The position numbers were made by a program, and so were the translations under genes. This document shows, in pieces, positions 16,240 through 49,522 of a DNA stretch of 64,000 nt; position 1 is the stretch's first letter, and each line of letters starts with the position of its first letter. Below the pieces are notes generated by a model, which was given only the letters and a program-made list of their open reading frames with translations, was not told the origin of the DNA and ran no database searches. The stretch is from an uncultured bacterium (GTDB lineage: Bacteria; Patescibacteriota; Minisyncoccia; Moranbacterales; UBA2206). The DNA lies in assembly GCA_903831805.1 (NCBI GenBank), contig CAIKZD010000009.1:145192-209191 (forward strand). Reading direction: 5' to 3'.

Positions 16240-16262
16240 GCACCGTCCTGTGGATAACTTTT

Positions 16263-19781: not shown

Positions 19782-19848
19782 TAGAGTTTATTTTAATTTT
19801 TACCCTAACCATATCATACCACATTCTCCAAAAACAGAAAGTGGTTGC

Positions 19849-19883
19849 GCTGTAGAGGCGCAGCAATGCTGCGCCTCTACAGC
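19849..19883. repeat. GC-rich perfect palindrome (17-bp arms, 1-nt spacer)
   Basis: gctgtagaggcgcagca a tgctgcgcctctacagc. Absent from the paralogous copy at ~25090-25130. Confidence 0.7.
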
Positions 19884-19923
19884 AAGGCTTGAGAAATTTG
19901 GGGATTAGGGTAAGATAGAGAAT

Positions 19924-19992
19924 ATGAGTGAAAGAGATTCAAAAATCTATATTGTCATTCCGACATATAACGAAGCGCTGGGGATAAGGTGA
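19924..19992 (+). pseudogene. truncated N-terminal fragment of a GT2 glycosyltransferase gene (paralog of 25162..25851)
   Basis: MSERDSKIYIVIPTYNEALGIR* versus MSETDPKIYIVIPAYNEGKVIEQ in the intact copy. Stop after 22 codons. Confidence 0.55.
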
Positions 19993-21342: not shown

Positions 21343-21357
21343 AAACCATACTCTTCC

Positions 21358-24300
21358 CTACACCTTCACCCTCTCCAAATCTTCCACCAAAATTGTTTGG
21401 ATTTTTGAATCAATGGTGCGAGCGAAATTTTTGTCTCGCTGAATTTGGTTTTCCAAGTCATTGATTTCGCGGTTGATGTTTTGTTTGAGATTTTCAATCA
21501 CCTTGTCCTTGGCCCACTGCGGTAGCCAGTGAGATTGAAAAGCGTTGAGTAAGACTATCATTTCTTGAATGTTTTTCAATTTAACTTCTAGGACAATTCT
21601 GGTGCTCAGTTTAGAAATGAGACCGAGGTTGAAATAGTGGGAAATGTTAGCGCTCATGGCGTTGAGATTGGTGGTGAGTGTAAACTTTGCTTCTGTTCGG
21701 GCTTGATTGCCCGCGGCGTCGGTCGCGGTGACGGCGACGGTGTGCGTGCCAAGTTTTTCCAGCGACAAATCGATTTGTTTTTTTTCTATGATATTTCCGT
21801 CATAGAAAACTTTTGTGACCAGTTTATCTGCCGCACTTTGATTGTCATTGGCAACATAGGTTATTGGCAACATGCCAGAGTTTTGGTAGTTTATATTTTT
21901 GGGTGAAGTGATTTGAACAGTGGGCACCGCCTGATCGAGCTTGATGGTTATTGTTTTTTCTATTTCAATGTTACCAGCTTTGTCAGTTGAATGATATTTA
22001 ATCTGATGCGTGCCGTCATTTGAAATTGTCAGTGTGTTTCCATTTTGCGCACTGCCACCATCCAGCGTATAGAAAGTTTGGTCTGCCCCGGACAAAGTTT
22101 CAGTGGCGGAAAAATTCAGTGTCACCGCCGATGTGTACCAATCATTCTCCCCTTTCGTGCCGGTGACTTCTGCCGTTGTGATGGGTGGGGTGGTGTCGAT
22201 GTTGATGTTTCCGACTGTCATGCTATTTTTATTGCCAGCATTATCCTCCGCCTCACCGGTCGCAACTTGATTTTGGCCTTCGCTACTCAGTGTCACGTTT
22301 GGCGTAACCGATCCAGCTTTTATACCAGAATCATCTGTGGCAGCAAAATGAATTTTAACATCGGTGTTGTTCCAACCATTCGCATTGGCCACCGGCGTGA
22401 CTGAGGCGGTGATGGTGGGCGGAGTGGTGTCGACAGATTTAATATCTTCAACCGGCGCTTCGTTTTTAGGATCATACGCGACCTCGTATTTTTTAACTTC
22501 CCCGAGTTTAATCTCTCCTTGAACCAAAGAAGAGCTATCATTTTTCATTCCCGTATAATCAGCATAATCCGACCCGATGTGATATTCCCCATTGCCATTG
22601 CCGGTTATTTTGACATCATATTTTCCTTTCTTTGGATTTGGGATAGAAAATATTTTAAACCCATCTGGATTTGATTGACCGGCATATTTGGCTAACGGAA
22701 TATTATTGATATTATCACTAGTAATAATATTCCCCTCAGGATCTTTTATCTCAACATTTACCGGAGATGCAAACCAAACAACCATCTCATCATTAATTTG
22801 TGGAGAATCAACAATATTATCCAGTGTTTCATCCAATCTTTGTGCGATTATTTTTTCTGATTGACTGACAACCTCCTTGTGCCCAAAGCTCAACGAATCG
22901 AAAAATTTACTTTGAATCTGAGCAGATGAAAGCATAACCTCACCGTCTCCGCTAGAATCATTTTTTTGCGGATCTATTGGATCCGGCTTACCATCTTTCC
23001 AAAGATCAGTATTTGAATCATCAGAAACGACAGTAGGAATTGTATTGACAGTTGGCTGATCTTTGCCGGCAATTATACTAACCTTGACTCTTTGATTTAG
23101 CAGGTCAATATTATTATTCAGTCCATCAAGAAAATCATTCTTTTCATTCATTGTCGCATAACCCATTAGACTGTCCGGCGTATTCTTGGGGTAAGTATAG
23201 TTATAACGCGGCATTAGTTCTCCGACAGAAGGCATAAAATCATGAATTGCTTTATAATCATTAGGTGCTTTATTTTTTATCTTCAAATGCGCCTTATATG
23301 CTTCCATCAACAATCTGTTGTCCCAATTTTTTGGTATATATCCGCCTTCCCATGCATCATAAACATCCGACGATCCCTTATTGGGCGTGGCCAACATAAT
23401 TAAATTATCGACATCGTTATTATAACCACTGCCTTCTATATAACTTCTTGCCACCAACCCTCCCATAGAGTGAGCCACAATATTCACTTCAGAAGTTCCA
23501 TTGAGAGAATTGGCTTTTTGAATTAGTGGCTTTAAATAATTTTTTGCAGAATCAGCATTGCTATTCCTCCAATCATAATAGGCGATGAAAAAATCTTTGT
23601 TTTCTACATAGCCCATATCTTTAAAAGATTGGATGATGCCATCATAAGTATGATCCATCATTGTCCAATTACCAGGAAGCGCGCCACCGATCATGATATC
23701 CGGATTGATTGCCGCGGCTATCCCTGGAACAAGGATGACTGGCTCTCTGGTTTTCGATGGATCACTGCCTAGCCATGGTTTGAAAATAACTCCGTCTCCA
23801 ACCTTATTTCCTTTCCCATCAAGATTTTTTTCTGCATTGACCCAAGTCGTATCATAATATGGCCCGCTCTTATCCCCCCACCAATTATTCTGTGCATTCA
23901 AGCTGTAGCTATGTCCGCCAGAAGATGCAGCGCCCATCATATTGCCTTCTATGATATTATTCGTCATAGTAGGACTCTTATATGTAGTGTTGTTATAAAC
24001 TACTACCCCAACTGAATTATTTGTAATGGCATTACCTTCTATAATAGGCAAGGAATCCATTAAATATAAAGCACAAAAACCACTATATTTTATTTCATTA
24101 TTTTTTATTATAGCATTGTCCGAATTGTTTATAGTAAGCGCTCCAGATACATTTCCACTTCTTGTTCCATATAAGAAAATTACATTTTCTATGTCAGCAT
24201 CTGATTTGTACAGATATAACCCTGGCCAATCCCCTGAAGCTGGACTAGTCGCATCGCCATCCCCATTGGTGTCTCCACCAAAAGAATCATCCTTCCAAGA

Positions 24301-24597
24301 AGTGAAAACAATCTTATCATCTTCTGAACCTTTAGCAATTAACTCGTGTGACATTATGCTGATACTAGCACCTGGCTTGACCTTAATGACTGTCCCAGCC
24401 TCTATTGTAAGTTTAGCATTTATTGTAAGATAGTCTGCAATCACATAAGGACTTTCTATTTTCTTCCATATCGTGGGTTCATTTATTGAATAGCCCTTGA
24501 TTATCGTCGGGCCAGCAGCATAAGTGCTTTTTGCACTAGCTAAGAAAGAAATTCCTGAAATAATTATTACTGCCAAACTAACTAATAATCTTTTCAT
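21358..24597 (-). CDS. large secreted protein: signal peptide, beta-helix, LCAT/PGAP1-like alpha/beta-hydrolase, three Ig-like domains, C-terminal coiled coil
   Basis: The track ORF extends to 24678, but the signal peptide MKRLLVSLAVIIISGISFLASA starts at ATG 24595-24597. YYDWRNS and VNIVAHSMGG lipase motifs. Repeated TTPP...T Ig-like modules. Paralog of CDS 16728..19781. Confidence 0.6.
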   Translation of the reverse strand: MKRLLVSLAVIIISGISFLASAKSTYAAGPTIIKGYSINEPTIWKKIESPYVIADYLTINAKLTIEAGTVIKVKPGASISIMSHELIAKGSEDDKIVFTSWKDDSFGGDTNGDGDATSPASGDWPGLYLYKSDADIENVIFLYGTRSGNVSGALTINNSDNAIIKNNEIKYSGFCALYLMDSLPIIEGNAITNNSVGVVVYNNTTYKSPTMTNNIIEGNMMGAASSGGHSYSLNAQNNWWGDKSGPYYDTTWVNAEKNLDGKGNKVGDGVIFKPWLGSDPSKTREPVILVPGIAAAINPDIMIGGALPGNWTMMDHTYDGIIQSFKDMGYVENKDFFIAYYDWRNSNADSAKNYLKPLIQKANSLNGTSEVNIVAHSMGGLVARSYIEGSGYNNDVDNLIMLATPNKGSSDVYDAWEGGYIPKNWDNRLLMEAYKAHLKIKNKAPNDYKAIHDFMPSVGELMPRYNYTYPKNTPDSLMGYATMNEKNDFLDGLNNNIDLLNQRVKVSIIAGKDQPTVNTIPTVVSDDSNTDLWKDGKPDPIDPQKNDSSGDGEVMLSSAQIQSKFFDSLSFGHKEVVSQSEKIIAQRLDETLDNIVDSPQINDEMVVWFASPVNVEIKDPEGNIITSDNINNIPLAKYAGQSNPDGFKIFSIPNPKKGKYDVKITGNGNGEYHIGSDYADYTGMKNDSSSLVQGEIKLGEVKKYEVAYDPKNEAPVEDIKSVDTTPPTITASVTPVANANGWNNTDVKIHFAATDDSGIKAGSVTPNVTLSSEGQNQVATGEAEDNAGNKNSMTVGNINIDTTPPITTAEVTGTKGENDWYTSAVTLNFSATETLSGADQTFYTLDGGSAQNGNTLTISNDGTHQIKYHSTDKAGNIEIEKTITIKLDQAVPTVQITSPKNINYQNSGMLPITYVANDNQSAADKLVTKVFYDGNIIEKKQIDLSLEKLGTHTVAVTATDAAGNQARTEAKFTLTTNLNAMSANISHYFNLGLISKLSTRIVLEVKLKNIQEMIVLLNAFQSHWLPQWAKDKVIENLKQNINREINDLENQIQRDKNFARTIDSKIQTILVEDLERVKV

Positions 24598-24610
24598 ATT
24601 TTGTATGCTA

Positions 24611-25039
24611 CTAATTAAGAGCCTTAAATATTCCCCCGACAGCCATTGGGAAAATGATATAAACAAAAATAAACGCATAGGTTACAATTATTGCAATAGA
24701 AATAATTAGCGAAATAAAAAATGATCTTATATTTATCTTATCATAAATTATTTTTGTGAAAATAAATGGGGATGTAATTATAAGCAATAGCACTATATAT
24801 ATACTCCCCATACTTATTCCATCGAAATAATCAAGCTGATTATAATGATGAATATATTTTAAAATAAAGTCATATATAACTGTTGTTGAAAAATAAAAAA
24901 ATATTAGCGTTAACAGTGAACTTAAACTCACATACCGCCATCTACTTTTTTCCTTCAAAAACCTCAACCAAAAAAACGGCGAGATTATGATGCCGGCAAT
25001 GAGAAATGAACAAATCCAGATAATTAAAGTTTTAATCAT
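24611..25039 (-). CDS. small integral membrane protein (hypothetical)
   Basis: 142 aa, 4 TM helices. Confidence 0.4.
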   Translation of the reverse strand: MIKTLIIWICSFLIAGIIISPFFWLRFLKEKSRWRYVSLSSLLTLIFFYFSTTVIYDFILKYIHHYNQLDYFDGISMGSIYIVLLLIITSPFIFTKIIYDKINIRSFFISLIISIAIIVTYAFIFVYIIFPMAVGGIFKALN

Positions 25040-25161
25040 TTTTAGTTTTTAATTTTTAAACCTAACCATATCATACCACATTCTAAAATAACTGAAAGTG
25101 GTCAGGGAGCTTGCGAAAGCCAAGGCTTGATAAATTTGAGGATTAGGGTAAGATAGAATAT

Positions 25162-25851
25162 ATGAGTGAAACAGACCCAAAAATCTACATCGTTATTCCG
25201 GCGTATAATGAGGGCAAGGTCATTGAGCAAACCATTCTATCGCTTAAGAACGAGAGGTATTCAAATATACTCGTAGTTAATGATGGCAGCTCTGACAAAA
25301 CGAAAGAGAACGCTCACCTCGCCGGTGCAGAGGTAATTGACCATATAATCAATCGCGGGCAAGGCGCGGCGCTGCGCACCGGGATAGAATATCTGCGGGA
25401 AAATTCCGATCCGGATATTATCGTCACCTTTGACGCCGACGGCCAACACCAGGCCAAGGATATACAAAAATTTGTCGAACTGATTTCTAAGGGTGAATGT
25501 GACATTGCCCTAGGCTCCCGTTTTTTAGCAAAAAAATCAAACATCCCAAGATTGAGAAAGATCATTCTCAAGCTCGGTGTGATTTTTACAAGATTCATTT
25601 CGGACATAGCTGTCACTGATACGCATAATGGCTTTAGGGCCCTTGGCAGGAAAGCCATCCAGTCGATAGAAATTACGCAAAGGGGCATGGAGCATGCTTC
25701 GGAGATAATTGATGAGATAAAAAAGAGAAAATTATCTTTCAAAGAAGTCCCCGTAGAAGTTATCTATACTGAATACTCAAAGATAAAGGGACAAAAAAAT
25801 TCTAACTTTGTTAAAATAGGGATCAAAATGATTCTTAAAAAACTTTTATGA
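25162..25851 (+). CDS. GT2 glycosyltransferase (Dpm1-like, soluble)
   Basis: IVIPAYNEG...VNDGSSD...FDADGQHQ. Confidence 0.75.
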   Translation: MSETDPKIYIVIPAYNEGKVIEQTILSLKNERYSNILVVNDGSSDKTKENAHLAGAEVIDHIINRGQGAALRTGIEYLRENSDPDIIVTFDADGQHQAKDIQKFVELISKGECDIALGSRFLAKKSNIPRLRKIILKLGVIFTRFISDIAVTDTHNGFRALGRKAIQSIEITQRGMEHASEIIDEIKKRKLSFKEVPVEVIYTEYSKIKGQKNSNFVKIGIKMILKKLL

Positions 25852-39906: not shown

Positions 39907-40710
39907 ATGTATTCAAAAGAGTTAACGGAAAAAATAAAAAAACACTACACCAAGTACTATAAAGATGAGTGCTGCCTAGCGGACTATGACTCCAGAGTGA
40001 AAAACAAGATAGCCAATGAAGAAGCTGTTGAATTGATGAAAATGAATAATCTTCAGCACATATTAGGATTGAATTTTAATGGGCAGAAGCATTTTATATT
40101 TGGAGCTGGTACTGGAGGTCTAGCCATTGCTTTAAATAAAAATTTCAATTGTGATGTATATGGCATAGAACCTGATGAGTGCGGGTTTGAAATTATTCAG
40201 AATAAATGTGAAGAAGCGGGAATAGACAAAAATAATTTTAAAATGGAGTACGGAGAAAAATTAAGCTTCGAGAGTGAAAAATTTGACTTTATTCATTGCT
40301 ATACAGTACTTGAACATGTTCAAAATATTGAAAAATGTATCGATGAAATGGTGCGACTAATTAAACCAGGAGGAAAAATATATATCAATACTCCAAATTA
40401 TTCTTTTCCCTACGATGGGCATTATAAAATATTTCTTCCAACATTTCTTCCTAAAATTTTTGGCTATCTATATTTAATTATTCTTAGAAAATCATATAAA
40501 TTCCTTAAAACTATTAACTACGTCACAGAGAAAGAACTAAATAAAATTTTAGTAAGAAAAAATAATATAACTTGGCTTAGAGTTTATAAACCAAAAAATG
40601 AGTCTTCTAATAATCTTGCTGGATTATTATGCAACTGGCTTATATTTAAAAATTTTATTTATAATGCACAGGAGATTATTATAATAAAAAATAACAACAT
40701 CCAGGAATAA
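39907..40710 (+). CDS. class I SAM-dependent methyltransferase
   Basis: FIFGAGTGGLA motif I, LIKPGGKIYINTPN. Confidence 0.6.
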   Translation: MYSKELTEKIKKHYTKYYKDECCLADYDSRVKNKIANEEAVELMKMNNLQHILGLNFNGQKHFIFGAGTGGLAIALNKNFNCDVYGIEPDECGFEIIQNKCEEAGIDKNNFKMEYGEKLSFESEKFDFIHCYTVLEHVQNIEKCIDEMVRLIKPGGKIYINTPNYSFPYDGHYKIFLPTFLPKIFGYLYLIILRKSYKFLKTINYVTEKELNKILVRKNNITWLRVYKPKNESSNNLAGLLCNWLIFKNFIYNAQEIIIIKNNNIQE

Positions 40711-40768
40711 GTCCCCTTACAATTTATTTCCTAAAATTTCACAAGAGACAATAAATAGAGTAGCCCAT

Positions 40769-42049
40769 TTAATGGATGGCCTTGAGATCTTTATTTGATG
40801 GATAGCAAAATGATCCCCTGTCCAACGAATAAAGTACGACAAAAATAATAAAGTATTGAAATCCAAATAAAAAAGCCAGCCCATTAATTCCAAATAAGGG
40901 CAACAATATAATCGTCAATATTATCTTTACAATAGGGCTAATTATTGATTCCCTGAAAAGAATATCTTTTTTATTCGAAAACAAAATTTGATTTTTGAAA
41001 ATCAATGCAAGAATAAAAAATGGATAAAATGCGATTGATATTTGCGATATATATATTGCAGAGATATATTTTTCTGAAAATAATAGGGGTAATATAAACT
41101 TGATTGCAACCAGACCAATAATAGCGATAGTAGCTCCTAAAAGAAATAAATATAAATAATGTTTTAGTGGCAAAGAGTTATATTTAACCTGTTTTGGAGC
41201 GAATATAGATAAGATTGATTTTGTATTATCCTGCAATTGCTTTGTCATAAGAATACCAATACTATATATCGCTAGAGATGTTGGGGATAATAAAATTCCG
41301 ATTAAAATTTTATCTATATTCCCCGAAATGAAACCTAGCACACTTAGTTTTGTCAAAAACCATCCGTATTTTATCGTATCCTTATCGCTTTTTTCATTTT
41401 CAACATATTGTAAACTCTTGTAGTAATAATACCCATTAAAAAAAGAAAATGATATTAAGTATATGGCAACAATTGCAACTAAATTATCCCTGTAAAAAAA
41501 TATAACCCCTATTGTAGCTATGGTGTTTATCAGTGATTGGATTGAGCTGTATTTTGCAGAAATATCAAATCTACTCTTGCCTTGTAAAAAGCTATCCCAA
41601 GTATTAGGCGCATAGAAAAAAGGAAAGAAAATTGAGGATAGCATAAACGCAATGCCCAGCGAATGATTCTGGAATGCATAATAATACATTCCAACGATTA
41701 AGAGTATTGGCACCCCCAGAAGACTCCATAAAAAACTAGCCCTGACCACTTTCTTATAATCACCGTCGTATCCCTTAGCCGCTGACTGAATGATGGACGT
41801 ATTCAGGCCTGGGATAGAAAGGATTGAAACAATCGAAAGAATGGACAGGATAAATTGATATTGCCCAAAAACTTCCTGCGTCGCAAGCCGCGCAAACGAC
41901 ACTGAAAGAGCCAGGCCACCCACTGTTCCAATTCCCTGACGAAACACCACCCAGAAGCCATTTTTGACGAAATACGGCAAATCTAGACCAATCTTATTGC
42001 CCCATTTTTTGGAAATTTGATAAATTTTTTCTTGGGTTCTTTTGATCAT
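40769..42049 (-). CDS. Wzx-type oligosaccharide flippase (MOP superfamily)
   Basis: 426 aa, 12-14 TM helices, polysaccharide-biosynthesis-protein layout. Confidence 0.65.
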   Translation of the reverse strand: MIKRTQEKIYQISKKWGNKIGLDLPYFVKNGFWVVFRQGIGTVGGLALSVSFARLATQEVFGQYQFILSILSIVSILSIPGLNTSIIQSAAKGYDGDYKKVVRASFLWSLLGVPILLIVGMYYYAFQNHSLGIAFMLSSIFFPFFYAPNTWDSFLQGKSRFDISAKYSSIQSLINTIATIGVIFFYRDNLVAIVAIYLISFSFFNGYYYYKSLQYVENEKSDKDTIKYGWFLTKLSVLGFISGNIDKILIGILLSPTSLAIYSIGILMTKQLQDNTKSILSIFAPKQVKYNSLPLKHYLYLFLLGATIAIIGLVAIKFILPLLFSEKYISAIYISQISIAFYPFFILALIFKNQILFSNKKDILFRESIISPIVKIILTIILLPLFGINGLAFLFGFQYFIIFVVLYSLDRGSFCYPSNKDLKAIH

Positions 42050-42065
42050 TTATAATGTCACTTTC

Positions 42066-42140
42066 TTATCGTTTATACCCCTCCGGCTTCCCATTATACC
42101 ACTTCCGGAGGCTTTCAATGCTGTCCCGCAAAGTTTTTTT
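42066..42140 (-). pseudogene. relic of a galE 3' end (encodes ...KKTLRDSIESLRKWYNGKPEGYKR*)
   Basis: Nucleotide and peptide match to the true galE C-terminus at 47665-47740 (...KKTLRDSIESLRKWYERRPEGYRK*). Confidence 0.65.
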
Positions 42141-42334
42141 GGATTTCTATGGGAGGATTTTTTCGTTTTTCGCGCTTTTAGCCATTCTTTGCAACTATCA
42201 ACCACCCCGTCATTCTACCATTTTTCAATCCTATGTTCAAATACTTATCTCCTACCACTCTCTGCGATTACCTCCAAGCAAAAAAGCAACTCCCGAAGGA
42301 GTCGCCTAATCTTTGTTATGAGCGAAGGATAAGA

Positions 42335-42715
42335 TTAACAATTTTTGCAGGCTATCAGGGAATTTATATCAACCATTTCCGGCTTAATCCTCACATCTTC
42401 TTTTTTCGGAAGAGCCCGGTTGGCAGCGACTATTCTAAGCATTTTTTCTATATCATCATTAGTATTGATAAAGGATATTTCTTTTTTATTTCTCGCTTTC
42501 CTTAGAAAATCTTCCTTCATAACTAGAAGTGCGTGAGCAGCCGAACGAGAAACGAATTCTACTTTTTTAAAATCCAAATCAACCAGATTAGTTTTGGCAG
42601 TTGAAATAATCTTCTCCAAAGAATAGACCAAATCCCTTGATCCAATAATCGGAGCGATTTCTTTATATAAATTTATTGTGGCTTTTTTGATGTTTTCCAT
42701 ATATTTTTCTAACAT
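42335..42715 (-). CDS. STAS-like / DUF4325-like small protein
   Basis: 126 aa. The LDFKKVEFVSRSAAHALL block resembles the DUF4325 STAS-like signature. Sits 33 nt downstream of the GHKL ATPase gene. Confidence 0.45.
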   Translation of the reverse strand: MLEKYMENIKKATINLYKEIAPIIGSRDLVYSLEKIISTAKTNLVDLDFKKVEFVSRSAAHALLVMKEDFLRKARNKKEISFINTNDDIEKMLRIVAANRALPKKEDVRIKPEMVDINSLIACKNC

Positions 42716-42748
42716 ATCACTATACTATATTATAACTGAGAAGTCAAT

Positions 42749-43603
42749 TTATTCCAAATATCCATTTTTATAGATATCCACAGGCCCTGTTGGTTTTGGT
42801 ATCCTGTAGGCGATGATGACACCTTGCCAATAAAAATCTGGAAGTGTGAATAATTTCTCGCTTTTCCCGGAAGAAACAAGAGCGGCAGAGCCGGATAAAA
42901 AGATAAATTCACCATTCATAGCATTGCAGACCACATTTCTAGAGGTTCTCACGCCATATCCCCTTTCTTTACTTGCCTTAGTAGAATTCCCCTTCATAGA
43001 TCGCAAGATTGCTTCACTATCCGTAAGCATTAAACCACCCTCTTCTTTGTAGGTTTCAGCAAGTCCCCTTCCACAATCCACGATACAAATATCGAGATAA
43101 TCTTTACTAGGATAAAATTGTCCGAATAAATATCCCTTGTCTTGCAAACTGTGTTCAAATATATTAGTGACCAATTCACTGATTGGGTAAAGGATAGCAC
43201 TGCGCGTCCCAGGAACAGAACCCACTACTTTTAAAATTAAATTTGCAAAAAGAGATTCTAACCGCTCTCTATCTGGATTTTTCTCTTTTCTGAGAATACT
43301 GATTGGGATATAATTCTTTTTTAATTGAATTTCTTTTTGAAAGGAAAGTACAGAATCAATGCCTTCGGGGAATTTTACCGCATCCAAATATGACTTGACC
43401 GATCCAGCCGCGGTATAAGAACTTTTTGTAGAATTTATATACGCGCTTAATGGTAATATCAAAAACGGATAAGCCCAATCAATTTTTGACAAGTTGAAAT
43501 TAAGTTTTTTGCTTTCTCCCTGATCCTTCAGCGCCAAATATAGAGAAACTAATTGTCCTTGTAAAAAGCTATTTTTTGGTTTTAAAACAGTAACCTCTTT
43601 CAT
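42749..43603 (-). CDS. GHKL-family ATPase (histidine-kinase-like ATPase domain) with an unknown N-terminal ~130-aa domain
   Basis: 284 aa. N-box ELVTNIFEHS, G1 box DCGRGL, G2-like GYGVRTS. No HisKA/DHp domain. Confidence 0.6.
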   Translation of the reverse strand: MKEVTVLKPKNSFLQGQLVSLYLALKDQGESKKLNFNLSKIDWAYPFLILPLSAYINSTKSSYTAAGSVKSYLDAVKFPEGIDSVLSFQKEIQLKKNYIPISILRKEKNPDRERLESLFANLILKVVGSVPGTRSAILYPISELVTNIFEHSLQDKGYLFGQFYPSKDYLDICIVDCGRGLAETYKEEGGLMLTDSEAILRSMKGNSTKASKERGYGVRTSRNVVCNAMNGEFIFLSGSAALVSSGKSEKLFTLPDFYWQGVIIAYRIPKPTGPVDIYKNGYLE

Positions 43604-43639
43604 TTTTTTGTATTCATTGTTTATAACTTAACAATATAA

Positions 43640-43720
43640 ATATCACTTTCTCACCAAATACCCCTCCCGGCCTTCTCTCATACCACTTTCGGAGACTTTC
43701 AATGCTTTTTGGATTTCCAT
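43640..43720 (-). pseudogene. second relic of a galE 3' end (...GNPKSIESLRKWYERRPGG...)
   Basis: Core 43661-43706 nearly identical to the galE 3' coding sequence. Frame is disrupted. Confidence 0.6.
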
Positions 43721-43764
43721 TGGATATTTTTTTCGCTTCTTCGATCCGTTGAAACTATCCCCGC

Positions 43765-45156
43765 TTATTTCTGAATTATTTTCCAATACCCGCCTTTATC
43801 TGGACCAACTCGTTCAATCAATCTTTTTTCTTTCAATTTTCGCAGATTGTTTTCAACATTTTTCTCAGCCATATCTATCTGATGAGCAATTTCAACAATT
43901 GATATTTTTTCATCCCCCCTTATTAAAGAAATGATTTTATTTTGATTCTCTGTCACCTTTTCACCCACCTTTTCACCCACCTTTTCACCCACCTTTTCAC
44001 CCACCTTTTCACCCACCTTTTCACCCACCTTTTCACCCACCTTTTCTTGTTCCCTTTTCTTAAAAGAAATCACAAAAGCGCCTGCTTTTTCAGAAAATTC
44101 AGGTAACTTATTGCCATTTTTTTTGCATTCCTCAACTATTCGCTGAAAACCAGTTCCCCAGCTTTCCACCAAGTTAACTTGATGGAAAATTTCCACCAGT
44201 TTTTTATTTCTCGGAATAGAACGGTTTTCTGAAAAAATACTTTTTATATCAATCTCTTTCGGCAAAACCCCCGGACTCCAAATCTCTAGAGAGTTATCGA
44301 ATATCCTGATTTGAATATTTCCCGAATCATTATAATCTCGGTGAATCAATGCGTTAATGACCGCCTCTCGCAGTGCCAAGAGAGGATAGTCCCAAATTTC
44401 ATCCCGCTCCGGCTTTCCTGTAATAACAAATTCCGTGTTGATATGCCTCTTGATAAAATTCATTGCTTGATCTACGCAATGAATAATACTTCCGTCGAAT
44501 TCTTTTTCATCCAAAAATTTAACCACACTTTGACCTTTAAATCTGGCTGCTTTTACGATAGCCTGGTAGATATCAGTATTGTTTTTCACAAAGCAAAGAT
44601 ATCCGGCGTTTGTAATTTTATTTTTAGATATCAACCCAAGCTTTTTTAAAAAATCGATTTCGGAGCTAATTCTAAATTTATAGTATTTATTGTTTATTTT
44701 TTTAATAAGATCAGCGTCAAATTCTATTTTTTTAATTTCTTTTTCTAGATACATTTTATCAAAATCAGACAAGGCATATCTCTTTATAAGCTCTCGCACT
44801 TCAGTTTGAGACATTTTTTGATTAGTTTTTCCAACTCTAATATACGCCCTTTCAAAGGCAAAGACCGGCTTATTATCTGATTCTGAAACTTCAATTTCCA
44901 CAATTTCGCCAAGGCCGAAGGTTTTCACGTTTATGGAAGGATATAATATTGGATCAGTATTGTTTTTTATTTTATTTGCAAAGTCTTCTATCGTACTTTT
45001 TCCAACTTGCAGCCCAGTTGCAACCCCGCCATCATCCATCCCAACAATAACCTTGCCGCCTTTTTTGTTGGCAAAAGCGCAAAGAGAAATTATCGCCTCT
45101 TTCCATTCGGAGAACGAAGATTTTAATTCGATTTTTTCAGATTCTTTTAATTGCAT
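43765..45156 (-). CDS. COG2865-type Schlafen-like ATPase / putative transcriptional regulator (AlbA_2-like N-domain, HATPase_c_4-like core, C-terminal wHTH)
   Basis: 463 aa. A C-terminal wHTH follows an (EKVG)x7 linker. Confidence 0.6.
   Translation of the reverse strand: MQLKESEKIELKSSFSEWKEAIISLCAFANKKGGKVIVGMDDGGVATGLQVGKSTIEDFANKIKNNTDPILYPSINVKTFGLGEIVEIEVSESDNKPVFAFERAYIRVGKTNQKMSQTEVRELIKRYALSDFDKMYLEKEIKKIEFDADLIKKINNKYYKFRISSEIDFLKKLGLISKNKITNAGYLCFVKNNTDIYQAIVKAARFKGQSVVKFLDEKEFDGSIIHCVDQAMNFIKRHINTEFVITGKPERDEIWDYPLLALREAVINALIHRDYNDSGNIQIRIFDNSLEIWSPGVLPKEIDIKSIFSENRSIPRNKKLVEIFHQVNLVESWGTGFQRIVEECKKNGNKLPEFSEKAGAFVISFKKREQEKVGEKVGEKVGEKVGEKVGEKVGEKVGEKVTENQNKIISLIRGDEKISIVEIAHQIDMAEKNVENNLRKLKEKRLIERVGPDKGGYWKIIQK
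43954..44046. repeat. in-frame 12-nt tandem repeat (ttttcacccacc x ~7.5) encoding (EKVG)n
   Basis: Perfect tandem copies seen directly. They lie inside CDS 43765..45156, between the ATPase core and the HTH. Confidence 0.85.
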
Positions 45157-45195
45157 ATTTGATATTGTTTTTTAACTATGGCAGATTCGCCATAA

Positions 45196-46074
45196 TTAAA
45201 TTTTGACATTTAATTTATTTAGTGCCACATTCACATTCGTCAATTTATTGAAATCCTTCCACTCAATCAAAGCAGTCCTTGAGATGATTTCTTCAATTTC
45301 CTCGTACTTCAAATGATAATTAGAGCCGATATCATACCTAGGAACAGTCAGTGAAGAAAATTCTTTGATAAAATAAAGCACGTTGTCACTTCCATACAAA
45401 AACAAATATGATTTTATTGGTTTTATGTTATTAATCACGCTAAAACCAAGAATAAATTTGGAATTTATTTCTCGCCCTCCTGATGATCCGCTGCCACCTT
45501 TTCGAAAAACTTTCTTGCCATTTTCCTCCCAAACAAAAATATTGTCATACGGATTTCTCCAATCCACATGATTTAACGACTGGGGCAAATTATAATATCT
45601 ATACCGCTTAACTTCTATCCGTGGCGCAAACAGCTTGTCGTGATTTTTATATTTTTTCAGTATTTTTTCTTTATACCGAGGTTCTAATTCATTTTTGATA
45701 ATATAATCATCAATTTCTTTTTTCATTTTTTCCTTCTTCCATACAAGTCTGTATTTATCAAGCCACTTTGCATATAATTCATTGCCGGCGCGATTATCAA
45801 ATTCGACAAAAAAATACTCATACAAAAGTTCTCTATAGAGAGCTTGCTTTGGCAATTGAGTTTTCTCTACATATTTTTTATTATTCCAAAATTTAGAATT
45901 AAGATTATCAATAATAATGGTTACGGTATAAGGATTTTTACTCTGTAATTTTTTGGCAATCTCCTTGTGAGTAGAAAAAGAATCGTGATAATAATCGTCC
46001 ACTGCCAAAATCTCAGCATCATATTCCTGAGTTAAATTAAATTTATCAATTTTAATAATTTCATTCGTTGACAT
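45196..46074 (-). CDS. hypothetical protein (defence-island resident, no motif recognised)
   Basis: The track ORF starts at TTG 46110. The first ATG, at 46072-46074, gives a 292-aa protein. It lies 39 nt downstream of the COG2865 gene. Confidence 0.4.
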   Translation of the reverse strand: MSTNEIIKIDKFNLTQEYDAEILAVDDYYHDSFSTHKEIAKKLQSKNPYTVTIIIDNLNSKFWNNKKYVEKTQLPKQALYRELLYEYFFVEFDNRAGNELYAKWLDKYRLVWKKEKMKKEIDDYIIKNELEPRYKEKILKKYKNHDKLFAPRIEVKRYRYYNLPQSLNHVDWRNPYDNIFVWEENGKKVFRKGGSGSSGGREINSKFILGFSVINNIKPIKSYLFLYGSDNVLYFIKEFSSLTVPRYDIGSNYHLKYEEIEEIISRTALIEWKDFNKLTNVNVALNKLNVKI

Positions 46075-46099
46075 ATAAGCATTATAGCTTATTTCTTGA

Positions 46100-46169
46100 C
46101 TATTTCCCAATATCCGCCTTTGTCGGGGGCCGACTTTTTTCAGATTCTTTTATCTGTATATTTGATATC
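46100..46169 (-). pseudogene. collapsed relic of a second COG2865 gene: 5' end (..IQIKESEK) fused directly to 3' end (..GPxxGGYWK..*)
   Basis: 46139-46166 matches 45138-45165 (the start of CDS 43765..45156). 46100-46134 matches 43768-43806 (its 3' end). Everything between has been deleted. Confidence 0.55.
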
Positions 46170-46173
46170 TTAC

Positions 46174-46965
46174 CTAGTTTTCAAAACTCTTCAAATACTC
46201 CGGTAATTTCAAGATCCACTCGGCCTGCTGCGGATAGAAAAGAAATCTTTCCACATCTTTGGCAGCTTGCTTCAAGTCACTTTTCCGGACTTGCGCCTGC
46301 AGGAAATCAATCAGCTCTTGCCGATTGATGATGGCAATTTTTTTCTCTTTAAAAATTTCATAATTCGGCTCAATATTTTTCTGACTCAGGAACCAAACCA
46401 AGTCGTAGAAGTCGCGGCCCTTTTGGTAGGGGCGAAAAATAATGGCCAAGATTTTCTGGGCGAAAAGTGTTTCCAGAGTATTGGAGATGATATTAAAACT
46501 CTTACCGTACGCAAAAATTTGCCTTGCTTCATAACGGATGCTCTTATATGGCGTCGGGTCAATTTCAAATTTAATTTTCAATTTTTGATTCGAAAAATCA
46601 GTCAATGCCATTTCTCTCATAACCTCCGAAAATTTTACATTGATAATGATAATATTTTCCGTTTTTTTAACAGTTGTGTCGGTTGGAAATCCCAATTCTC
46701 TCAGTTTCTTTCCGATAAATCCGGCTAATTCTTCGTAATCCAGCCCGTCTTGGATCAAATCGAAATCCAAATCTTCGGAAAATCTTTCGATTTTATGGAT
46801 AAAACGCAAGCAAGTTCCGCCTAAAAATGACACGTACGGCCCAAACTTAGAATTGAAAACCACGGCTAAAATTTCCGTTTGCAAATATTCGGTCAAAATG
46901 CGCCGCGGAATATTTGGAATACTATTTCTTTTGACGTAATCTTCCAAGAAAAACTTATCTAACAT
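46174..46965 (-). CDS. abiEii: AbiEii/AbiGii-family nucleotidyltransferase toxin (DUF1814)
   Basis: FLGGTCLRF...ERFSEDLDFDL signature of AbiEii nucleotidyltransferases. Confidence 0.65.
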   Translation of the reverse strand: MLDKFFLEDYVKRNSIPNIPRRILTEYLQTEILAVVFNSKFGPYVSFLGGTCLRFIHKIERFSEDLDFDLIQDGLDYEELAGFIGKKLRELGFPTDTTVKKTENIIIINVKFSEVMREMALTDFSNQKLKIKFEIDPTPYKSIRYEARQIFAYGKSFNIISNTLETLFAQKILAIIFRPYQKGRDFYDLVWFLSQKNIEPNYEIFKEKKIAIINRQELIDFLQAQVRKSDLKQAAKDVERFLFYPQQAEWILKLPEYLKSFEN

Positions 46966-47575
46966 TTTTTTGATAGTTTAAAACACTTTCGATTAATTTG
47001 TTGACTTTTCTATTGTTGAGCAGGTTTTTGTATAAGTCCAATTTTTTCTTTTTAAATTTAAACTCCTCATCAATTCTCATTTCTTTCCAAAAATCGATAT
47101 CATCTTTAATTTTGTTCTTATTCAGATAGATATAATCAATAAGTGCTTTTTCAGGAGTGGCAATATTAAAGGAAACATTTTTTTCCATCCGAGCTTCATA
47201 TCCGGTGAAAAATTCAGGCTTAATTTTTTGATATGTAAAATTTCCGAAGGGATTCTTGAAATACTTCGTAGTTTTTGAAGTCACTGAGGTATAAGTTCCG
47301 GGGATATCAGGGATAATCCCATAATAATTCAATGCGAATTCCAAGCTCAAATATGATGGCTCGTAAATTTTTTCTGCAAAAACTTTTGGATCAAGTTCAC
47401 TTTTTACTTTGGCAAGAATATACAAACCATCTTTTATCTTATTTAAGTAGCCTTTTTTCAACCAAAATGAAATCTGAACCATAATATTTTTTTGATCAAA
47501 AAAAATACTTTTTACCTCGGAAGCGGTAAAAACTGGATAATTTTTAACTTTTTCTTCAAAGTCGTAAAATTGCAT
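46955..47575 (-). CDS. abiEi: AbiEi-like antitoxin / transcriptional regulator (type IV TA)
   Basis: 206 aa. 11-nt overlap with the abiEii start. N-terminal wHTH-like region. Size and context fit AbiEi. Confidence 0.55.
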   Translation of the reverse strand: MQFYDFEEKVKNYPVFTASEVKSIFFDQKNIMVQISFWLKKGYLNKIKDGLYILAKVKSELDPKVFAEKIYEPSYLSLEFALNYYGIIPDIPGTYTSVTSKTTKYFKNPFGNFTYQKIKPEFFTGYEARMEKNVSFNIATPEKALIDYIYLNKNKIKDDIDFWKEMRIDEEFKFKKKKLDLYKNLLNNRKVNKLIESVLNYQKNVR

Positions 47576-47664
47576 ATATAAGCCTATTGTTAACTATGTA
47601 CGTTTATGTGTATTATTATATATCATAACTAAAAGAAACGCAAGCCATTTAATCTATGCCCGCT

Positions 47665-48678
47665 TCATTTCCTATATCCCTCCGGTCTCCTCTCATACCA
47701 CTTCCGAAGACTCTCAATGCTATCGCGCAAAGTTTTCTTAGCTTTCCATCGGAGAACTCTTTGGGCTTTTTTCGGATTGGCGAAAATCTCGGCGTATTCG
47801 CCTTTGCGGGCCGGAGCTTTTTGTTTTTTCATTTTTATCCCAAAAACTTTTTCCACTTCGCTCACGATCTCTTTCACCGAAAATCCGCGGCCGTTGCCCA
47901 AATTGAGAATCTGATTTTGACCGCCATGTTTCAAATAATCCAGAGCGAAAAAATGTGCTTCGACCAGATCTTCCACGTCGATGTAATCACGAATAGGCGT
48001 CTTGTCAGGCGTTTTGACGGTGGGACAAGTGTAGAAAAACGGTTCAATGTTCATGGCGCCACGCACGGCATTTTGCATAAGCAGCAAAGACGGTTTTTTG
48101 CTGTCGCCAATTGTGCCGTCGCTGGCCGCGCCGCAAACATTAAAATAGCGTAGGATGACATATTTAAAATTATGCAGTTCGCCATACCATTTGAGCATCC
48201 TTTCCACTAACATTTTTGATTCGCCGTAAGGATTGGCCGGATCTTGCGGATGCAATTCGTCCACCGGCAAATATTTGGTTTCGCCGTAAGTGGCGCAGGT
48301 GGAAGAAAAAATGATTTTTTTGACATTGGCTTTTCGCATCGCTTCCAAAAGGTTGAAACTGCCCAAAACATTATTTTCAAAATATAGTTCCGGTTGTTCC
48401 ATCGATTCATTAACGGAACACAAGGCGGCAAAATGCAAGACCGCCTCAATTTCATATTTGGCAAAAACTTTTTCAATGTCTGATTTTTTCCGCAAATCAC
48501 CTTTCACAAATTCCAGCGGCCCAAGTTTTTGCAAAATTTCCAAAACTTCGCGATAGCCATGCAAAAGATTATCAAAAACCACTACCTTAAATCCTCTTTC
48601 TAAAAAAAGTTTCACGGCGTGGCTGCCGATATAGCCCGCCCCACCGGTGACTAAAATCGTTGGCTTTTTATTTGGCAT
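47665..48678 (-). CDS. galE: UDP-glucose 4-epimerase
   Basis: 337 aa. ILVTGGAGYIGSH, YxxxK, full-length GalE architecture. Confidence 0.85.
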   Translation of the reverse strand: MPNKKPTILVTGGAGYIGSHAVKLFLERGFKVVVFDNLLHGYREVLEILQKLGPLEFVKGDLRKKSDIEKVFAKYEIEAVLHFAALCSVNESMEQPELYFENNVLGSFNLLEAMRKANVKKIIFSSTCATYGETKYLPVDELHPQDPANPYGESKMLVERMLKWYGELHNFKYVILRYFNVCGAASDGTIGDSKKPSLLLMQNAVRGAMNIEPFFYTCPTVKTPDKTPIRDYIDVEDLVEAHFFALDYLKHGGQNQILNLGNGRGFSVKEIVSEVEKVFGIKMKKQKAPARKGEYAEIFANPKKAQRVLRWKAKKTLRDSIESLRKWYERRPEGYRK

Positions 48679-48724
48679 AATTTTTATTCATCATTATTAC
48701 ATTCCCATTCTACCATCTACTCAA

Positions 48725-48753
48725 TTGACATTCAAGCGCTGTGGTTTTATAAT
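48725..48753 (+). promoter_or_regulatory. consensus sigma70 promoter TTGACA-N17-TATAAT giving a leaderless transcript
   Basis: The -10 ends 6 nt before the ATG at 48760. No SD is possible. Confidence 0.6.
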
Positions 48754-48759
48754 TGGGTT

Positions 48760-49035
48760 ATGAATAACAGTGAAAATACAAAAAAAGAAATAACCCTCGA
48801 TGATTTGGCGCTAATGGTAGCCAAGGGTTTTAACGAAATAAATGAAAAGATGGATAAGCGGTTTAGGGAAGTAGCTGTGAAGATTGAGGAAACGAATGAA
48901 AAGATGGACAGAGGTTTCCGTGAAGCAAAAACCGAAAGAGAAGACATCGGAGCTGATATTAATAAGAAAGTTGACAAAATAGAACATAACACACTCACCT
49001 ATCGCGTCGAAAAACTGGAAAAGAAGTTTGCTTAA
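48760..49035 (+). CDS. small coiled-coil protein (hypothetical) with internal duplication
   Basis: 91 aa. NEKMDKRFREVAVKIEE / NEKMDRGFREAKTERED repeat. Perfect promoter upstream and a terminator downstream. Confidence 0.5.
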   Translation: MNNSENTKKEITLDDLALMVAKGFNEINEKMDKRFREVAVKIEETNEKMDRGFREAKTEREDIGADINKKVDKIEHNTLTYRVEKLEKKFA

Positions 49036-49061
49036 GGTGAGAGTTGGATTATCCAAAATAT

Positions 49062-49090
49062 GAACAGGCACCCAGTCTGTTCTTTTTTTT
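49062..49090 (+). terminator. rho-independent terminator
   Basis: gaacag-N9-ctgttc stem followed by T8. Confidence 0.65.
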
Positions 49091-49204
49091 AAAAACTTCT
49101 TAGAATTCAAGTAATAATCCTTTACAAAATCAAAATATTGTGCTAGGATGAGGTCAAATTGAACGGTGCATTTTGCACAAAAAGCCACCCAGGAGGAAAT
49201 AGCC

Positions 49205-49522
49205 ATGCCGTTAGATATGTCTGTGCTAAAAAAACACTCGTTTCAAGTGCCAATGATTGAAACATTAGCTGAGGCGATTAATGCATTAACTTTCAGCGAT
49301 AATCTGCAAAAAATCGCCGAAGCAAAAGCATTTATCATCGGCCCAAAGGGGCTTGAGAGCAATAATAAAAATATACAACTCGACACCCTAGTGCAAATCA
49401 AGCGTCTCGATAGGCTGGGCGAACATCTTCGCCACGCCATTGCCGTTTTTGAAAATAATCCGGCAAATACAGAAGTCATAGCCGAAGCCAAAAAACACCC
49501 TCCCCTTCATGTCTGTACATGA
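49205..49522 (+). CDS. hypothetical small protein
   Basis: The track ORF starts at 49166. ATG 49205 has an AGGAGG SD 8 nt upstream (MPLDMSVLKK...). Confidence 0.4.
   Translation: MPLDMSVLKKHSFQVPMIETLAEAINALTFSDNLQKIAEAKAFIIGPKGLESNNKNIQLDTLVQIKRLDRLGEHLRHAIAVFENNPANTEVIAEAKKHPPLHVCT

Follow-up and report, generated by a model that had tools for sequence, protein, structure and literature searches.

Copies of the galE 3' end between galE and wzx in an uncultured patescibacterium as probable scars of insertion with long target duplication

Integrase islands at the 3' ends of genes accrete in tandem, as exemplified by tRNA and tmRNA islands, SCCmec at rlmH and the tycheposons, while the minimal mobile elements of Neisseria rely on transformation and homologous recombination to exchange the cassettes that lie between conserved flanking genes. 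The interval described here, between galE and wzx in a 64-kb window (the whole stretch of DNA analysed) from an uncultured, ultra-small CPR/Patescibacteria bacterium, resembles both. As in integrase islands, its elements are edged by directly repeated 3' ends of a gene, the target gene is not disrupted and successive elements leave repeated partial gene ends, but here neither an integrase nor a conserved att core was found, the target varies by context and includes 5' ends, and the repeats are long and variable. As in minimal mobile elements, a single intergenic site between conserved genes holds cassettes that differ by genome, mobility genes are absent and exchange via flanking homology is likely; those elements, however, are not known to have duplicated gene ends at their borders or to form arrays, and in this the island differs. 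Integron arrays also contain small co-oriented cassettes, mostly of defence or toxin-antitoxin genes, separated by a recurring element (~60-130 nt) beside a fixed entry point, and the same cassettes occur in different order across genomes. Unlike integrons, the island has no IntI, its AbiE cassette has its own promoter, and its recurring element, a pseudogene fragment, has no potential for attC-type hairpins.

Among known kinds of event the closest is insertion with long target duplication, most descriptions of which concern restriction-modification (RM) genes (Nobusato et al. 2000, Gene 259:99; Furuta, Abe & Kobayashi 2010, NAR, PMC2853133). There, as here, inserts of selfish or defence genes (<20 kb) without integrase or transposase lie between direct repeats (>30 bp) that duplicate the target sequence at the site, in many cases overlap the 3' end of a gene and vary in length (46-423 bp there, 41-185 nt here); the RM cases lack mobility genes, come mostly from naturally competent species and have an unexplained mechanism (PMC2853133). 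Whereas those cases carry RM genes, the cargo here is AbiE, COG2865/Schlafen-like, GHKL/STAS, AAA_14/DUF4143 and Fic, so the role proposed for RM-made double-strand breaks is not general. The present case also differs in its serial, nested events at one junction (arrays of up to three to four copies), in its CPR/Patescibacteria host and in that the empty site was not recovered. IS1634 and IS1549 likewise generate long direct repeats of the target, which vary in length (8-514 bp) and whose origin is unexplained (PMC2266710), but those elements come with a DDE transposase gene and terminal inverted repeats, and neither was found here. The island, with every gene from 40769 to 48678 on the minus strand, comprises the following features.

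47665-48678, minus: intact galE, UDP-glucose 4-epimerase (Pfam Epimerase, E 9e-59)
47665-47795, minus: copy C, the live galE 3' end (last ~130 nt of galE; copy alignment, self-BLASTN)
46174-47644, minus: AbiE cassette (boundaries by comparison with L038, L039 and L041)
46955-47575, minus: abiEi (PADLOC AbiEi, E 2e-53)
46174-46965, minus: abiEii (PADLOC AbiEii, E 1e-50)
46087-46168, minus: ghost of a second COG2865-type gene (91% to 45132-45165, 83% to 43763-43803)
45196-46074, minus: gene for a 292-aa protein (called as 292 aa on public contigs)
43765-45156, minus: Schlafen-AlbA_2/HATPase_c_4/winged-HTH protein of COG2865 type (PF04326, E 6e-18; PF13749, E 1e-22)
43643-43750, minus: copy B, galE 3' pseudo-copy (translation, alignment, self-BLASTN)
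42210-43664, minus: GHKL/STAS cassette (nucleotide identity to the L042 and L047 cassettes, Pfam and PHROG matches)
42749-43603, minus: GHKL-like ATPase gene of that cassette
42335-42715, minus: STAS-like protein gene of that cassette
42284-42307: terminator-like hairpin of that cassette, followed by a ~70-nt tail
42066-42190, minus: copy A, galE 3' pseudo-copy (translation, alignment, self-BLASTN)
40769-42049, minus: wzx flippase (Pfam Polysacc_synt, E 1e-16)

Pfam, PADLOC and PHROG searches confirmed this gene order and content. The closest homologues of galE (86-77% identical) are GalE by name, and wzx is the first gene of a low-GC polysaccharide cluster; it shares 67% nucleotide identity with the wzx of L042, the first ~115 nt being conserved between them and acting in L042 as the duplicated target. 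The AbiE cassette, 78% identical in nucleotides to L038 4731-6202, opens at 47644 with a promoter/operator (CTTGCGTTTCTT) containing a 9-bp inverted repeat and has sharp edges on both sides, at which the boundary comparison with L038, L039 and L041 revealed no terminal repeats. The 292-aa protein has no match in Pfam, NCBIfam, PHROG, PADLOC or PDB, and its single-sequence AF2 model (pLDDT 32.6) is unusable. The COG2865-type gene holds eight tandem copies of a 12-nt repeat (43954-44046), polymorphic in L054, and the GHKL-like/STAS-like pair gives weak Pfam matches and matches phrog_3364 (E 2e-37). The island occurs on 17-18 independent public contigs (JGI, ENA, NCBI, Logan), which excludes an assembly artefact. 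Five of these, when compared, are 100% identical over 40700-48700 save one 12-nt repeat unit, so the island is fixed within the species and gives no direct sign of ongoing insertion or excision. As the preliminary description had it, no integrase is present: neither a scan of 40 large window ORFs nor the precomputed Pfam matches for the genes at 32.6-40.7 kb turned up an integrase, transposase or recombinase domain.

The three galE ends reported there are real. In a self-BLASTN of 40001-49500, A and C match over 42074-42172 and 47673-47774 (77%/102 nt, E 9e-17), A and B over 42054-42172 and 43639-43743 (70%/121 nt, E 4e-11), and B and C over 43658-43706 and 47674-47721 (86%/49 nt, E 1e-7). A self-search of the whole window again gives significant matches for all three pairs, and a repeat search returns the same families. 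The coordinates first given were right to within ~10-50 nt, although the copies reach somewhat further 5'. The live C-terminus reads ...WKAKKTLRDSIESLRKWYERRPEGYRK and stops at 47665. Copy A reads ...KILP, stop, KSKKTLRDSIESLRKWYNGKPEGYKR, stop, an in-frame TAG replacing Trp, and its stop-equivalent (42068..42066) precedes the wzx ATG (42049) by 16 nt. Copy B reads ...NIQWKSKK, a 14-nt deletion, SIESLRKWYERRPGG, +1 nt, then YLVRK and its stop-equivalent (43645..43643); its last ~20 nt, from 43664, accompany the GHKL/STAS cassette in other genomes. A and B are thus pseudogenised galE ends, and each galE-end copy is placed at a cassette boundary. The site patterns are unequal: A and B agree against C at 23 sites, versus 10 and 11 for the other groupings (chi-square P 0.028). 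Judged by these shared states, A and B are sisters, both derived from one earlier remnant and not from two regenerations of the live end, so the GHKL/STAS insertion duplicated a pre-existing remnant beside wzx rather than the live galE end.

Between AbiE and the COG2865 block no galE-end copy is present. Instead there is the ghost gene, built from 9 nt of upstream sequence and the first 25 nt of a COG2865-type gene, its start codon now ATA, joined to the last ~48 nt; it is 81% identical to a remnant in L047. Either this junction arose by an event without duplication or its scar was later deleted. The sequence upstream of copy A also resembles the COG2865 3' end, a similarity that alone is not significant.

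Among related genomes the interval varies in content, which supports reading the copies as serial insertion scars at a hot spot. In L026 and L033, galE is followed by AAA_14, an 84-nt galE-end copy (93%), 20 nt and wzx; this AAA_14 gene is the only one in the L026 interval. L036 has the galE end, AbiE, a copy, AAA_14 and another copy, three copies in all, plus a further ORF, and its copy distances are additive (5, 4 and 9 mismatches). L042 contains Fic, GHKL/STAS and a 136-aa ORF, and L045-47 contain AbiE and GHKL/STAS. No related locus had galE directly against wzx with a single copy. The remnant-spacer-wzx junction of copy A recurs in L026, and its conservation in these two species suggests that galE and wzx were ancestrally adjacent.

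Other cassettes in related genomes are bounded likewise, and the same cassettes occur elsewhere between duplicates of whichever gene end adjoins them. In L038, AbiE lies between 83-nt copies of the 3' end of another epimerase (epi2), and in L007 AAA_14 lies between 41-nt copies of the ugd 3' end plus spacer; in L008, L039 and L041 no duplicate was detected flanking AbiE. The GHKL/STAS cassette of the window is 89.6% identical in nucleotides to L042 4117-5490 and 78.9% to L047 2107-3556, and in both genomes it is flanked by wzx 5'-end copies. Because the galE of the L042 MAG is only 80% identical to that of the window in amino acids, I count this cassette identity as evidence of horizontal transfer. 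L042 has four wzx-5' copies, which divide its three cassettes; c2 is 90% identical to the live wzx despite the intervening c3 and another cassette, whereas c3 is 74% identical (Fisher P 0.012), a pattern that fits import of a donor wzx 5' anchor and not copying in situ. In L047 GHKL/STAS comes after a wzx-5' remnant joined to 'GATAAGAAAGTG', the galE stop with its spacer. The onset of homology in this cassette also varies, from 43664 of the window against L042 to 43658 against L047, where the cassette begins 4 nt ahead of the remnant's stop; fragments with random ends that retain some former context would be expected to differ in this way. The window itself holds a second long duplication, whose left copy is listed here.

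19791-19973, plus: promoter and first ~75 nt of a GT2 gene (75%/185 nt, E 2e-28)

With its intact counterpart (25047-25211, gene 25162-25851) it brackets a ~5-kb insert containing an AAA_14/DUF4143 gene (20083-21342, Pfam E 3e-33) and the gene for a 1106-aa surface protein (21358-24678). Across loci the duplicates span 41-185 nt, those of galE, epi2, ugd, wzx-5' and GT2-5' share no core, and the cassettes are always oriented as the duplicated gene.

These observations bear unequally on the possible origins of the copies. In the preliminary description, cassettes integrated repeatedly at an attachment site in the galE 3' end and regenerated it each time; an integrase encoded elsewhere would insert cassettes bearing a galE-3' mimic of attP into attB in galE, and they would accrete in tandem. 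Direct repeats of gene 3' ends around inserts are a classic tyrosine-integrase signature, two genomes have three-copy arrays, and both L026 copies end in galE-like tails (AGYGR-stop and GGYKK-stop) around a near-identical 84-nt core. The claim nevertheless lacks support on several counts, and I consider such integration distinctly improbable: AbiE, AAA_14 and GHKL/STAS families are also bounded by epi2, ugd, wzx-5' and GT2-5' duplicates, the repeats have no common core, cassettes simply begin with a promoter and finish at a stop codon, with no conserved arms, A and B are sister copies, the AbiE/COG2865 junction has no copy, no integrase lies in the 64 kb or beside the arrays of related loci, and IMG/VR contigs yielded no galE-end sequence. 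Its secondary suggestion, cassette exchange through flanking homology, is nearer to the data. Duplication in situ, by an unrecognised enzyme whose cuts, staggered by 40-190 nt, are filled in after insertion, is unlikely but less so. It would account for duplicates of local sequence that vary in length and are 90-93% identical in L026, L036, L038 and L007; possible variants are transposition like that of IS1634/IS1549, whose long repeats provide a precedent, and break repair or template switching, possibly involving the AAA_14/DUF4143 ATPase encoded in four flanked inserts. Yet transposase and terminal inverted repeats are absent, inserts of AbiE and GHKL/STAS are built alike yet contain no AAA_14 gene, strict co-orientation is unexpected of random insertion, and both the L042 identities and the cassette ends with old galE context favour import with a homologous anchor.

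The copies might instead be unrelated to the cassettes, as residues of additional full-length galE paralogues that arrived through exchange of the polysaccharide locus and then lost all but their 3' ends to deletion. The glycan cluster here is indeed low in GC and exchangeable (its wzx is just 21% identical in amino acids to that of L026), and the COG2865 ghost attests to local decay by deletion. This is very unlikely, however: the remnants are always just the terminal 41-130 nt, exactly at the distal cassette boundary, 5' ends (wzx, GT2) show the same pattern, and the ~93% identity of remnant to resident gene end in L026, L036 and L038 implies copying from the resident gene, not from a foreign allele. 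I give least credence, very little indeed, to the repeats being primarily functional, a regulatory RNA or promoter/terminator module under selection rather than insertion scars. Copy A does carry TGGTATAAT (42101..42093), a perfect extended -10 motif 43 nt ahead of the wzx ATG, TATAAT in the L038 remnant precedes galE, and the 3' part of the COG2865 ghost places TTGGGA-18-TATAAT (promoter-like site 46110..46081) just ahead of the 292-aa gene, so that a decaying copy may provide the promoter of the gene that follows it. Such use accounts for the retention of a copy, not its origin; no Rfam family matches at E<0.1, fold z-scores of -1.6 to +0.9 are not significant, and the frameshifts, stops and indels are typical of pseudogenes.

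At this point, I think it rather probable that the galE-end copies are scars of insertion with long target duplication, the mechanism of which I infer. The events involve neither a mobility gene nor a terminal repeat nor a structured site, and junction anatomy points to homology-anchored, RecA-type integration of DNA from related genomes as the most likely route. DNA of related CPR bacteria would be taken up, probably by natural transformation, and a fragment would bring a cassette together with 40-190 nt of a conserved neighbouring gene; recombination through this single anchor (Campbell, ends-in or HFIR-like) would then duplicate the anchor. In transformation, DNA normally enters as single strands and double-crossover replacement is favoured, which counts against the model, as does the shortness of 41-nt anchors for RecA. 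Natural competence is documented in the CPR Saccharibacteria (PMC10633639). Between copies, unequal recombination, gene conversion and deletion would let arrays grow, shuffle and erode. The L026 copies have near-identical cores and divergent edges, which could equally come from gene conversion.

Insertion with long target duplication would thus have begun from a tight galE/wzx junction, into which came accessory defence-type cassettes: AbiE, the COG2865-type gene with the 292-aa gene, and the GHKL/STAS pair. Each insertion would have duplicated the neighbouring gene end so that direct copies bracket the inserted DNA, one of them preserving an intact galE while the other decayed, and the result would be a small defence island assembled at galE/wzx.

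The DNA comes from a CPR/Patescibacteria genome, Paceibacterota-like, and is a cell-envelope glycan region almost throughout; the closest species-representative galE (80% identical) belongs to a Candidatus Paceibacterota MAG. Over the profiled 30-60 kb, GC content is about 26-38% in the polysaccharide cluster and the island between galE and wzx (26000-47600), with a local peak of 41.5% at about 41.6-42.2 kb, and about 38-50%, mostly 42-50%, from 47.6 kb onward. The first ~400 nt of wzx are richer in GC than the remaining gene and are conserved with the wzx of a related contig, L042. The minus strand holds every gene from 40769 to 48678.

Features of the interval, from galE to wzx
48678..47665, minus strand, galE, ending in the live copy of its own 3' end (copy C)
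47575..46174, minus strand, abiEi-abiEii (PADLOC AbiEi E 2e-53, AbiEii E 1e-50; Pfam PF08843 E 1.5e-21)
46168..46087, minus strand, 82-nt ghost of a COG2865-type gene
46074..45196, minus strand, gene for a 292-aa protein without assigned function
45156..43765, minus strand, Schlafen-AlbA_2/HATPase_c_4/wHTH gene
43750..43643, minus strand, galE-end copy B
43603..42335, minus strand, GHKL-like ATPase and STAS-like protein, with a terminator-like hairpin
42190..42066, minus strand, galE-end copy A
42049..40769, minus strand, wzx, 16 nt beyond copy A

The AbiEi antitoxin and AbiEii nucleotidyltransferase genes are adjacent, overlap by 11 nt, and are predicted to form an AbiE (type IV toxin-antitoxin / abortive infection) system. 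Searches of Pfam, NCBIfam, PHROGs, PADLOC and PDB sequences gave no match to the 292-aa protein, whose single-sequence AlphaFold model, at pLDDT 32.6, cannot be used. Within the Schlafen gene, a 12-nt repeat in eight tandem units (43954-44046) codes for (VGEK)n; one public contig, L054, is short by one unit, and several public contigs start no more than about 300 nt downstream of the repeat.

The preliminary description took the galE-end copies to be serial insertion scars, and this is supported. Conceptual translation identifies both A and B as pseudogenised C-termini of galE: A contains an in-frame stop, and B a frameshift and a 14-nt deletion. Self-BLAST pairs them significantly (A-C, E 9e-17; A-B, E 4e-11; B-C, E 1e-7), and the same pairs are still among the top matches when the whole window is compared with itself. 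Direct repeats of more than 30 bp flank the inserts: A, B and C align over 49-121 nt, the repeats in relatives measure 41-87 nt at 79-93% identity, and a second case in the window reaches 185 nt. Inserts are 1.2-5.1 kb, and every repeat is a copy of the adjoining gene end. Because 17-18 independent public contigs carry the three-copy structure and the five compared are identical, the structure is real, yet fixed and clonal in the species; samples with this clone include JGI 3300022555 and ENA ERZ27245625. These five contigs show no strain-level presence/absence variation, and informative comparison is therefore only between species. Only one galE end is present in each of the relatives L006 and L027-L030; a true empty site, with galE directly abutting wzx, was not found in the relatives examined.

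The nearest galE (86%) is that of L026, the same locus as L033. There, galE is succeeded by a single AAA_14/DUF4143 ATPase gene, then by an 84-nt galE-end copy (93% identical), a spacer of 20 nt, and wzx. The wzx of L026 is just 21% identical to that of the window, yet the junction of remnant, spacer and ATG can be aligned, which points to an ancestrally tight galE/wzx junction that would have bordered an exchangeable glycan cluster. Scanning metagenome contigs by DNA pattern for the conserved SIESLRKWY-coding motif returned six loci, two of them with multiple copies: L033 and L036. In L036, three galE-end copies set AbiE, AAA_14 and one more ORF apart from each other. Since these two loci hold different cassettes, the content of the junction varies between genomes, as the preliminary description anticipated, and a gene-end copy comes after each cassette.

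The finding is also more general than the preliminary description could show. L038 carries an AbiE cassette 78% identical in nucleotides to that of the window (AbiEii, 82% aa), flanked by the 3' end of a different epimerase gene (epi2) and an 83-nt copy of it at 93% identity, directly upstream of galE. In L007 an AAA_14 gene is flanked on one side by the ugd end and on the other, just 5' of galE, by 41 nt duplicated from the ugd end plus spacer. L042 belongs to the MAG that also contains L006. Its wzx 5' end is present in four copies, which separate Fic, GHKL/STAS and an ORF of 136 aa, and its GHKL/STAS cassette is 89.6% identical in nucleotides to 43664..42280 of the window. Finally, L045-L047 have a GHKL/STAS cassette (79% nt) after a wzx-5' remnant fused to GATAAGAAAGTG, 12 nt identical to the end of remnant A plus A's spacer; a COG2865 3' remnant comes after the cassette. 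Counting the window, cassettes of five or more families lie between duplicates (41-185 nt) of five or more gene ends, some of them 3' and some 5', and duplication is not restricted to galE. A weak galE C-terminus-like stretch in L042 (2496-2543, RKALKRLFWKPKKMLE, E 0.03) lies at the end of an 812-aa TPR ORF, directly ahead of the first wzx-5' copy, the live galE of that genome being on L006; it may be a relic of the ancestral galE/wzx junction. Related AbiE cassettes also occur between wzm and wzt (L008, 2819-4194), after a NUDIX gene (L039, 7391-8792) and beside an IS200-like gene (L041, 7391-8798), with no detectable flanking duplicate at these three sites; the called NUDIX ORF of L039 seems to extend about 30 nt into the cassette promoter.

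The window itself holds another long direct duplication, 19791-19973 versus 25047-25211 (75% over 185 nt), in which the promoter of the GT2 gene at 25162 is repeated together with the initial ~75 nt of that gene. These GT2-end copies bracket an AAA_14/DUF4143 gene (20083-21342) and a gene for a 1106-aa OmpL47-like surface protein (21358-24678). A long palindrome is formed in the left copy by 19 nt that the right copy lacks. A 42-nt direct repeat (93%) has one copy at 21352-21393, across the 3' ends of the genes for AAA_14 and the 1106-aa protein, and the other at 16262-16303, about 13 nt downstream of a 133-aa ORF that comes after a 1017-aa lipase-like gene; the two may represent a shared terminator or a further scar. 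A similarity of 60% over about 500 nt links 423-923, in sequence ahead of the first listed ORF, to 3395-3901, inside a 585-aa ORF (2186-3943).

The copies suggest a likely order of events. Over the galE-homologous part aligned in all three, 23 sites unite A and B to the exclusion of C, with 10 and 11 sites for the other two groupings (chi-square P 0.028). The galE of L026, as outgroup, agrees with C at 11 of these 23 sites, so A and B share the derived state and are sisters. The GHKL/STAS insertion thus duplicated a pre-existing remnant beside wzx, without a second regeneration of the live galE end. In the likely order, an insertion containing COG2865 at the galE end would have made one remnant, GHKL/STAS would then have entered beside wzx and duplicated it, and AbiE would have come in beside galE without a surviving scar. 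The distances among the three copies of L036 are additive (5, 4 and 9 mismatches), compatible with the same chain-like growth. Deletion is also eroding the array, as the ghost of a second COG2865 gene shows. In that ghost (46087-46168) the 5' 34 nt are joined to the last ~48 nt, a near-complete internal deletion, and the start codon is now ATA. The A/B duplication may also reach into the COG2865 3' end, with indirect support from L047; alone, that alignment is not significant, 524 and 111 of 2000 shuffles scoring as well.

The limits of the AbiE unit are sharp in four genomes: it begins at CTTGCGTTTCTT, 66-68 nt ahead of the ATG of abiEi, and finishes at the stop codon of abiEii. Comparison of the four reveals neither conserved sequence beyond these limits nor terminal repeats. 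The segment ahead of abiEi is a promoter in which the arms of a 9-bp inverted repeat, GCGTTTCTT ... AAGAAACGC, flank a TATAAT box (47590-47644 in the window, conserved upstream of abiEi in L038, L039 and L041), presumably the AbiEi operator. I found no integrase, transposase or recombinase domain in the 64-kb window (Pfam scans of 40 ORFs directly, precomputed Pfam for the remainder and the related loci), nor in or beside the arrays of L026, L036, L038, L042 and L045. There is likewise no constant attachment core, because the sequence that borders closely related AbiE and GHKL/STAS cassettes is galE-3', epi2-3' or wzx-5', according to the genome, and visual inspection of the alignments revealed no motif common to the various duplicated targets. 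The proposal that cassettes entered a galE attachment site, restored at every insertion, is not supported, in view of these boundaries and of the sister relationship of A and B; its fallback, exchange through flanking homology, comes nearer to the data. Conserved regulatory RNA does not account for the repeats: an Rfam scan of 41800-47900 (E<=1) placed no family over any of them, its lone match being a sub-threshold sbrA (22.9 bits versus a gathering score of 45) over the STAS terminator. A phage or viral carrier was also rejected, as the galE-end motif, GHKL and AbiEii had no confirmed relatives on IMG/VR contigs.

The defining features of three known kinds of element were tested and are absent here. 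An integrase-mediated island at a gene 3' end has a recombinase and a constant att core, neither of which was found. An integron has intI with an adjacent attI, whereas the window lacks a Phage_integrase-type domain, and attC sites are imperfect palindromes that fold as single-stranded hairpins, unlike the eight copies folded here on both strands (z -1.6 to +0.9 versus shuffles, with no common hairpin). IS1634-type transposons carry a DDE transposase and terminal inverted repeats, whereas the AbiE cassette has neither and ends at a promoter and a stop codon. Judged from sequence, the architecture matches "insertion with long target duplication", reportedly described by Nobusato et al. in 2000: the two share direct repeats of more than 30 bp, inserts below 20 kb, and no integrase, transposase or other mobile element. 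Furuta et al. (2010) found restriction-modification genes inserted without any mobility gene and flanked by 46-423-bp target copies, often overlapping a gene 3' end, mostly in naturally competent bacteria, and speculated that insertion depends on restriction-made breaks (PMC2853133). The cargo in published screens is a restriction-modification system, which was their search criterion rather than a mechanistic requirement; here it is AbiE, COG2865-type, GHKL/STAS, AAA_14 and Fic genes. Also unlike the published cases, the events here are serial and nested, forming arrays, and the host belongs to the CPR.

How such duplications arise can be approached from the cassette ends. The left end of GHKL/STAS holds pieces of a former galE context, joined to internal wzx positions at breakpoints that differ between L042 and L047, as expected of circularised or one-end-anchored random fragments from a window-like donor. 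Furthermore, the copy left of GHKL/STAS in L042 matches the live wzx at 90% identity, even with an older copy (74%) and another cassette in between (P 0.012), a pattern hard to obtain by copying of a local target. All cassettes are co-oriented with the duplicated gene. For these three reasons I think it more likely that foreign DNA integrated through a single homologous anchor, duplicating it in the process (Campbell / ends-in / HFIR-like), than that an enzyme cut the target with a long stagger. Long target duplication in situ by an unrecognised activity may nevertheless occur: long variable target repeats can also come from transposases, as with IS1634/IS1549 (PMC2266710), and the recurrent AAA_14/DUF4143 genes are a lead, but the end pieces, copy identities and co-orientation fit the homologous anchor better. 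The literature searches on CPR genomic islands and DUF4143 mobility found nothing relevant. Natural competence is known in the CPR Saccharibacteria (PMC10633639), and recent horizontal transfer is implied because the GHKL/STAS cassette is 90% identical in nucleotides between genomes versus 80% aa for the housekeeping galE of the same MAG (L042/L006). Once integrated through its anchor, a copy-bracketed cassette can move or stack by ordinary or unequal homologous recombination. It is a rather unlikely further step that these loci represent an integrase-free CPR cassette array, an "integron run by homologous recombination" whose duplicated gene ends would be portable sites for the capture, stacking, shuffling and export of defence cassettes, or else the work of an unrecognised enzyme, for example the AAA_14/DUF4143 ATPase, that might actively make long variable target duplications.

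The remnants may persist because they supply promoters to displaced downstream genes. By consensus match only, TGGTATAAT in remnant A (42101..42093), 43 nt before the wzx start codon, is a perfect extended -10 motif; the L038 remnant has TATAAT ahead of galE; and the COG2865 ghost has TTGGGA-18-TATAAT, 6 nt before the ATG of the 292-aa gene. In remnant A the galE codons TGG TAT GAG have become TGG TAT AAT.

Nearly all documented cases of insertion with long target duplication have so far involved restriction-modification genes. That the same architecture here carries toxin-antitoxin/Abi and other defence-island genes argues against a mechanism requiring restriction cuts. Cassette ends that keep bits of their prior neighbourhood are unusually direct evidence on the kind of DNA integrated, and the proposed one-sided-homology integration is directly testable because Saccharibacteria are now transformable. 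Arrays stacked at one junction, with the order of acquisitions recorded in nested scars, are a way in which a tiny, integrase-poor genome can build a defence island.
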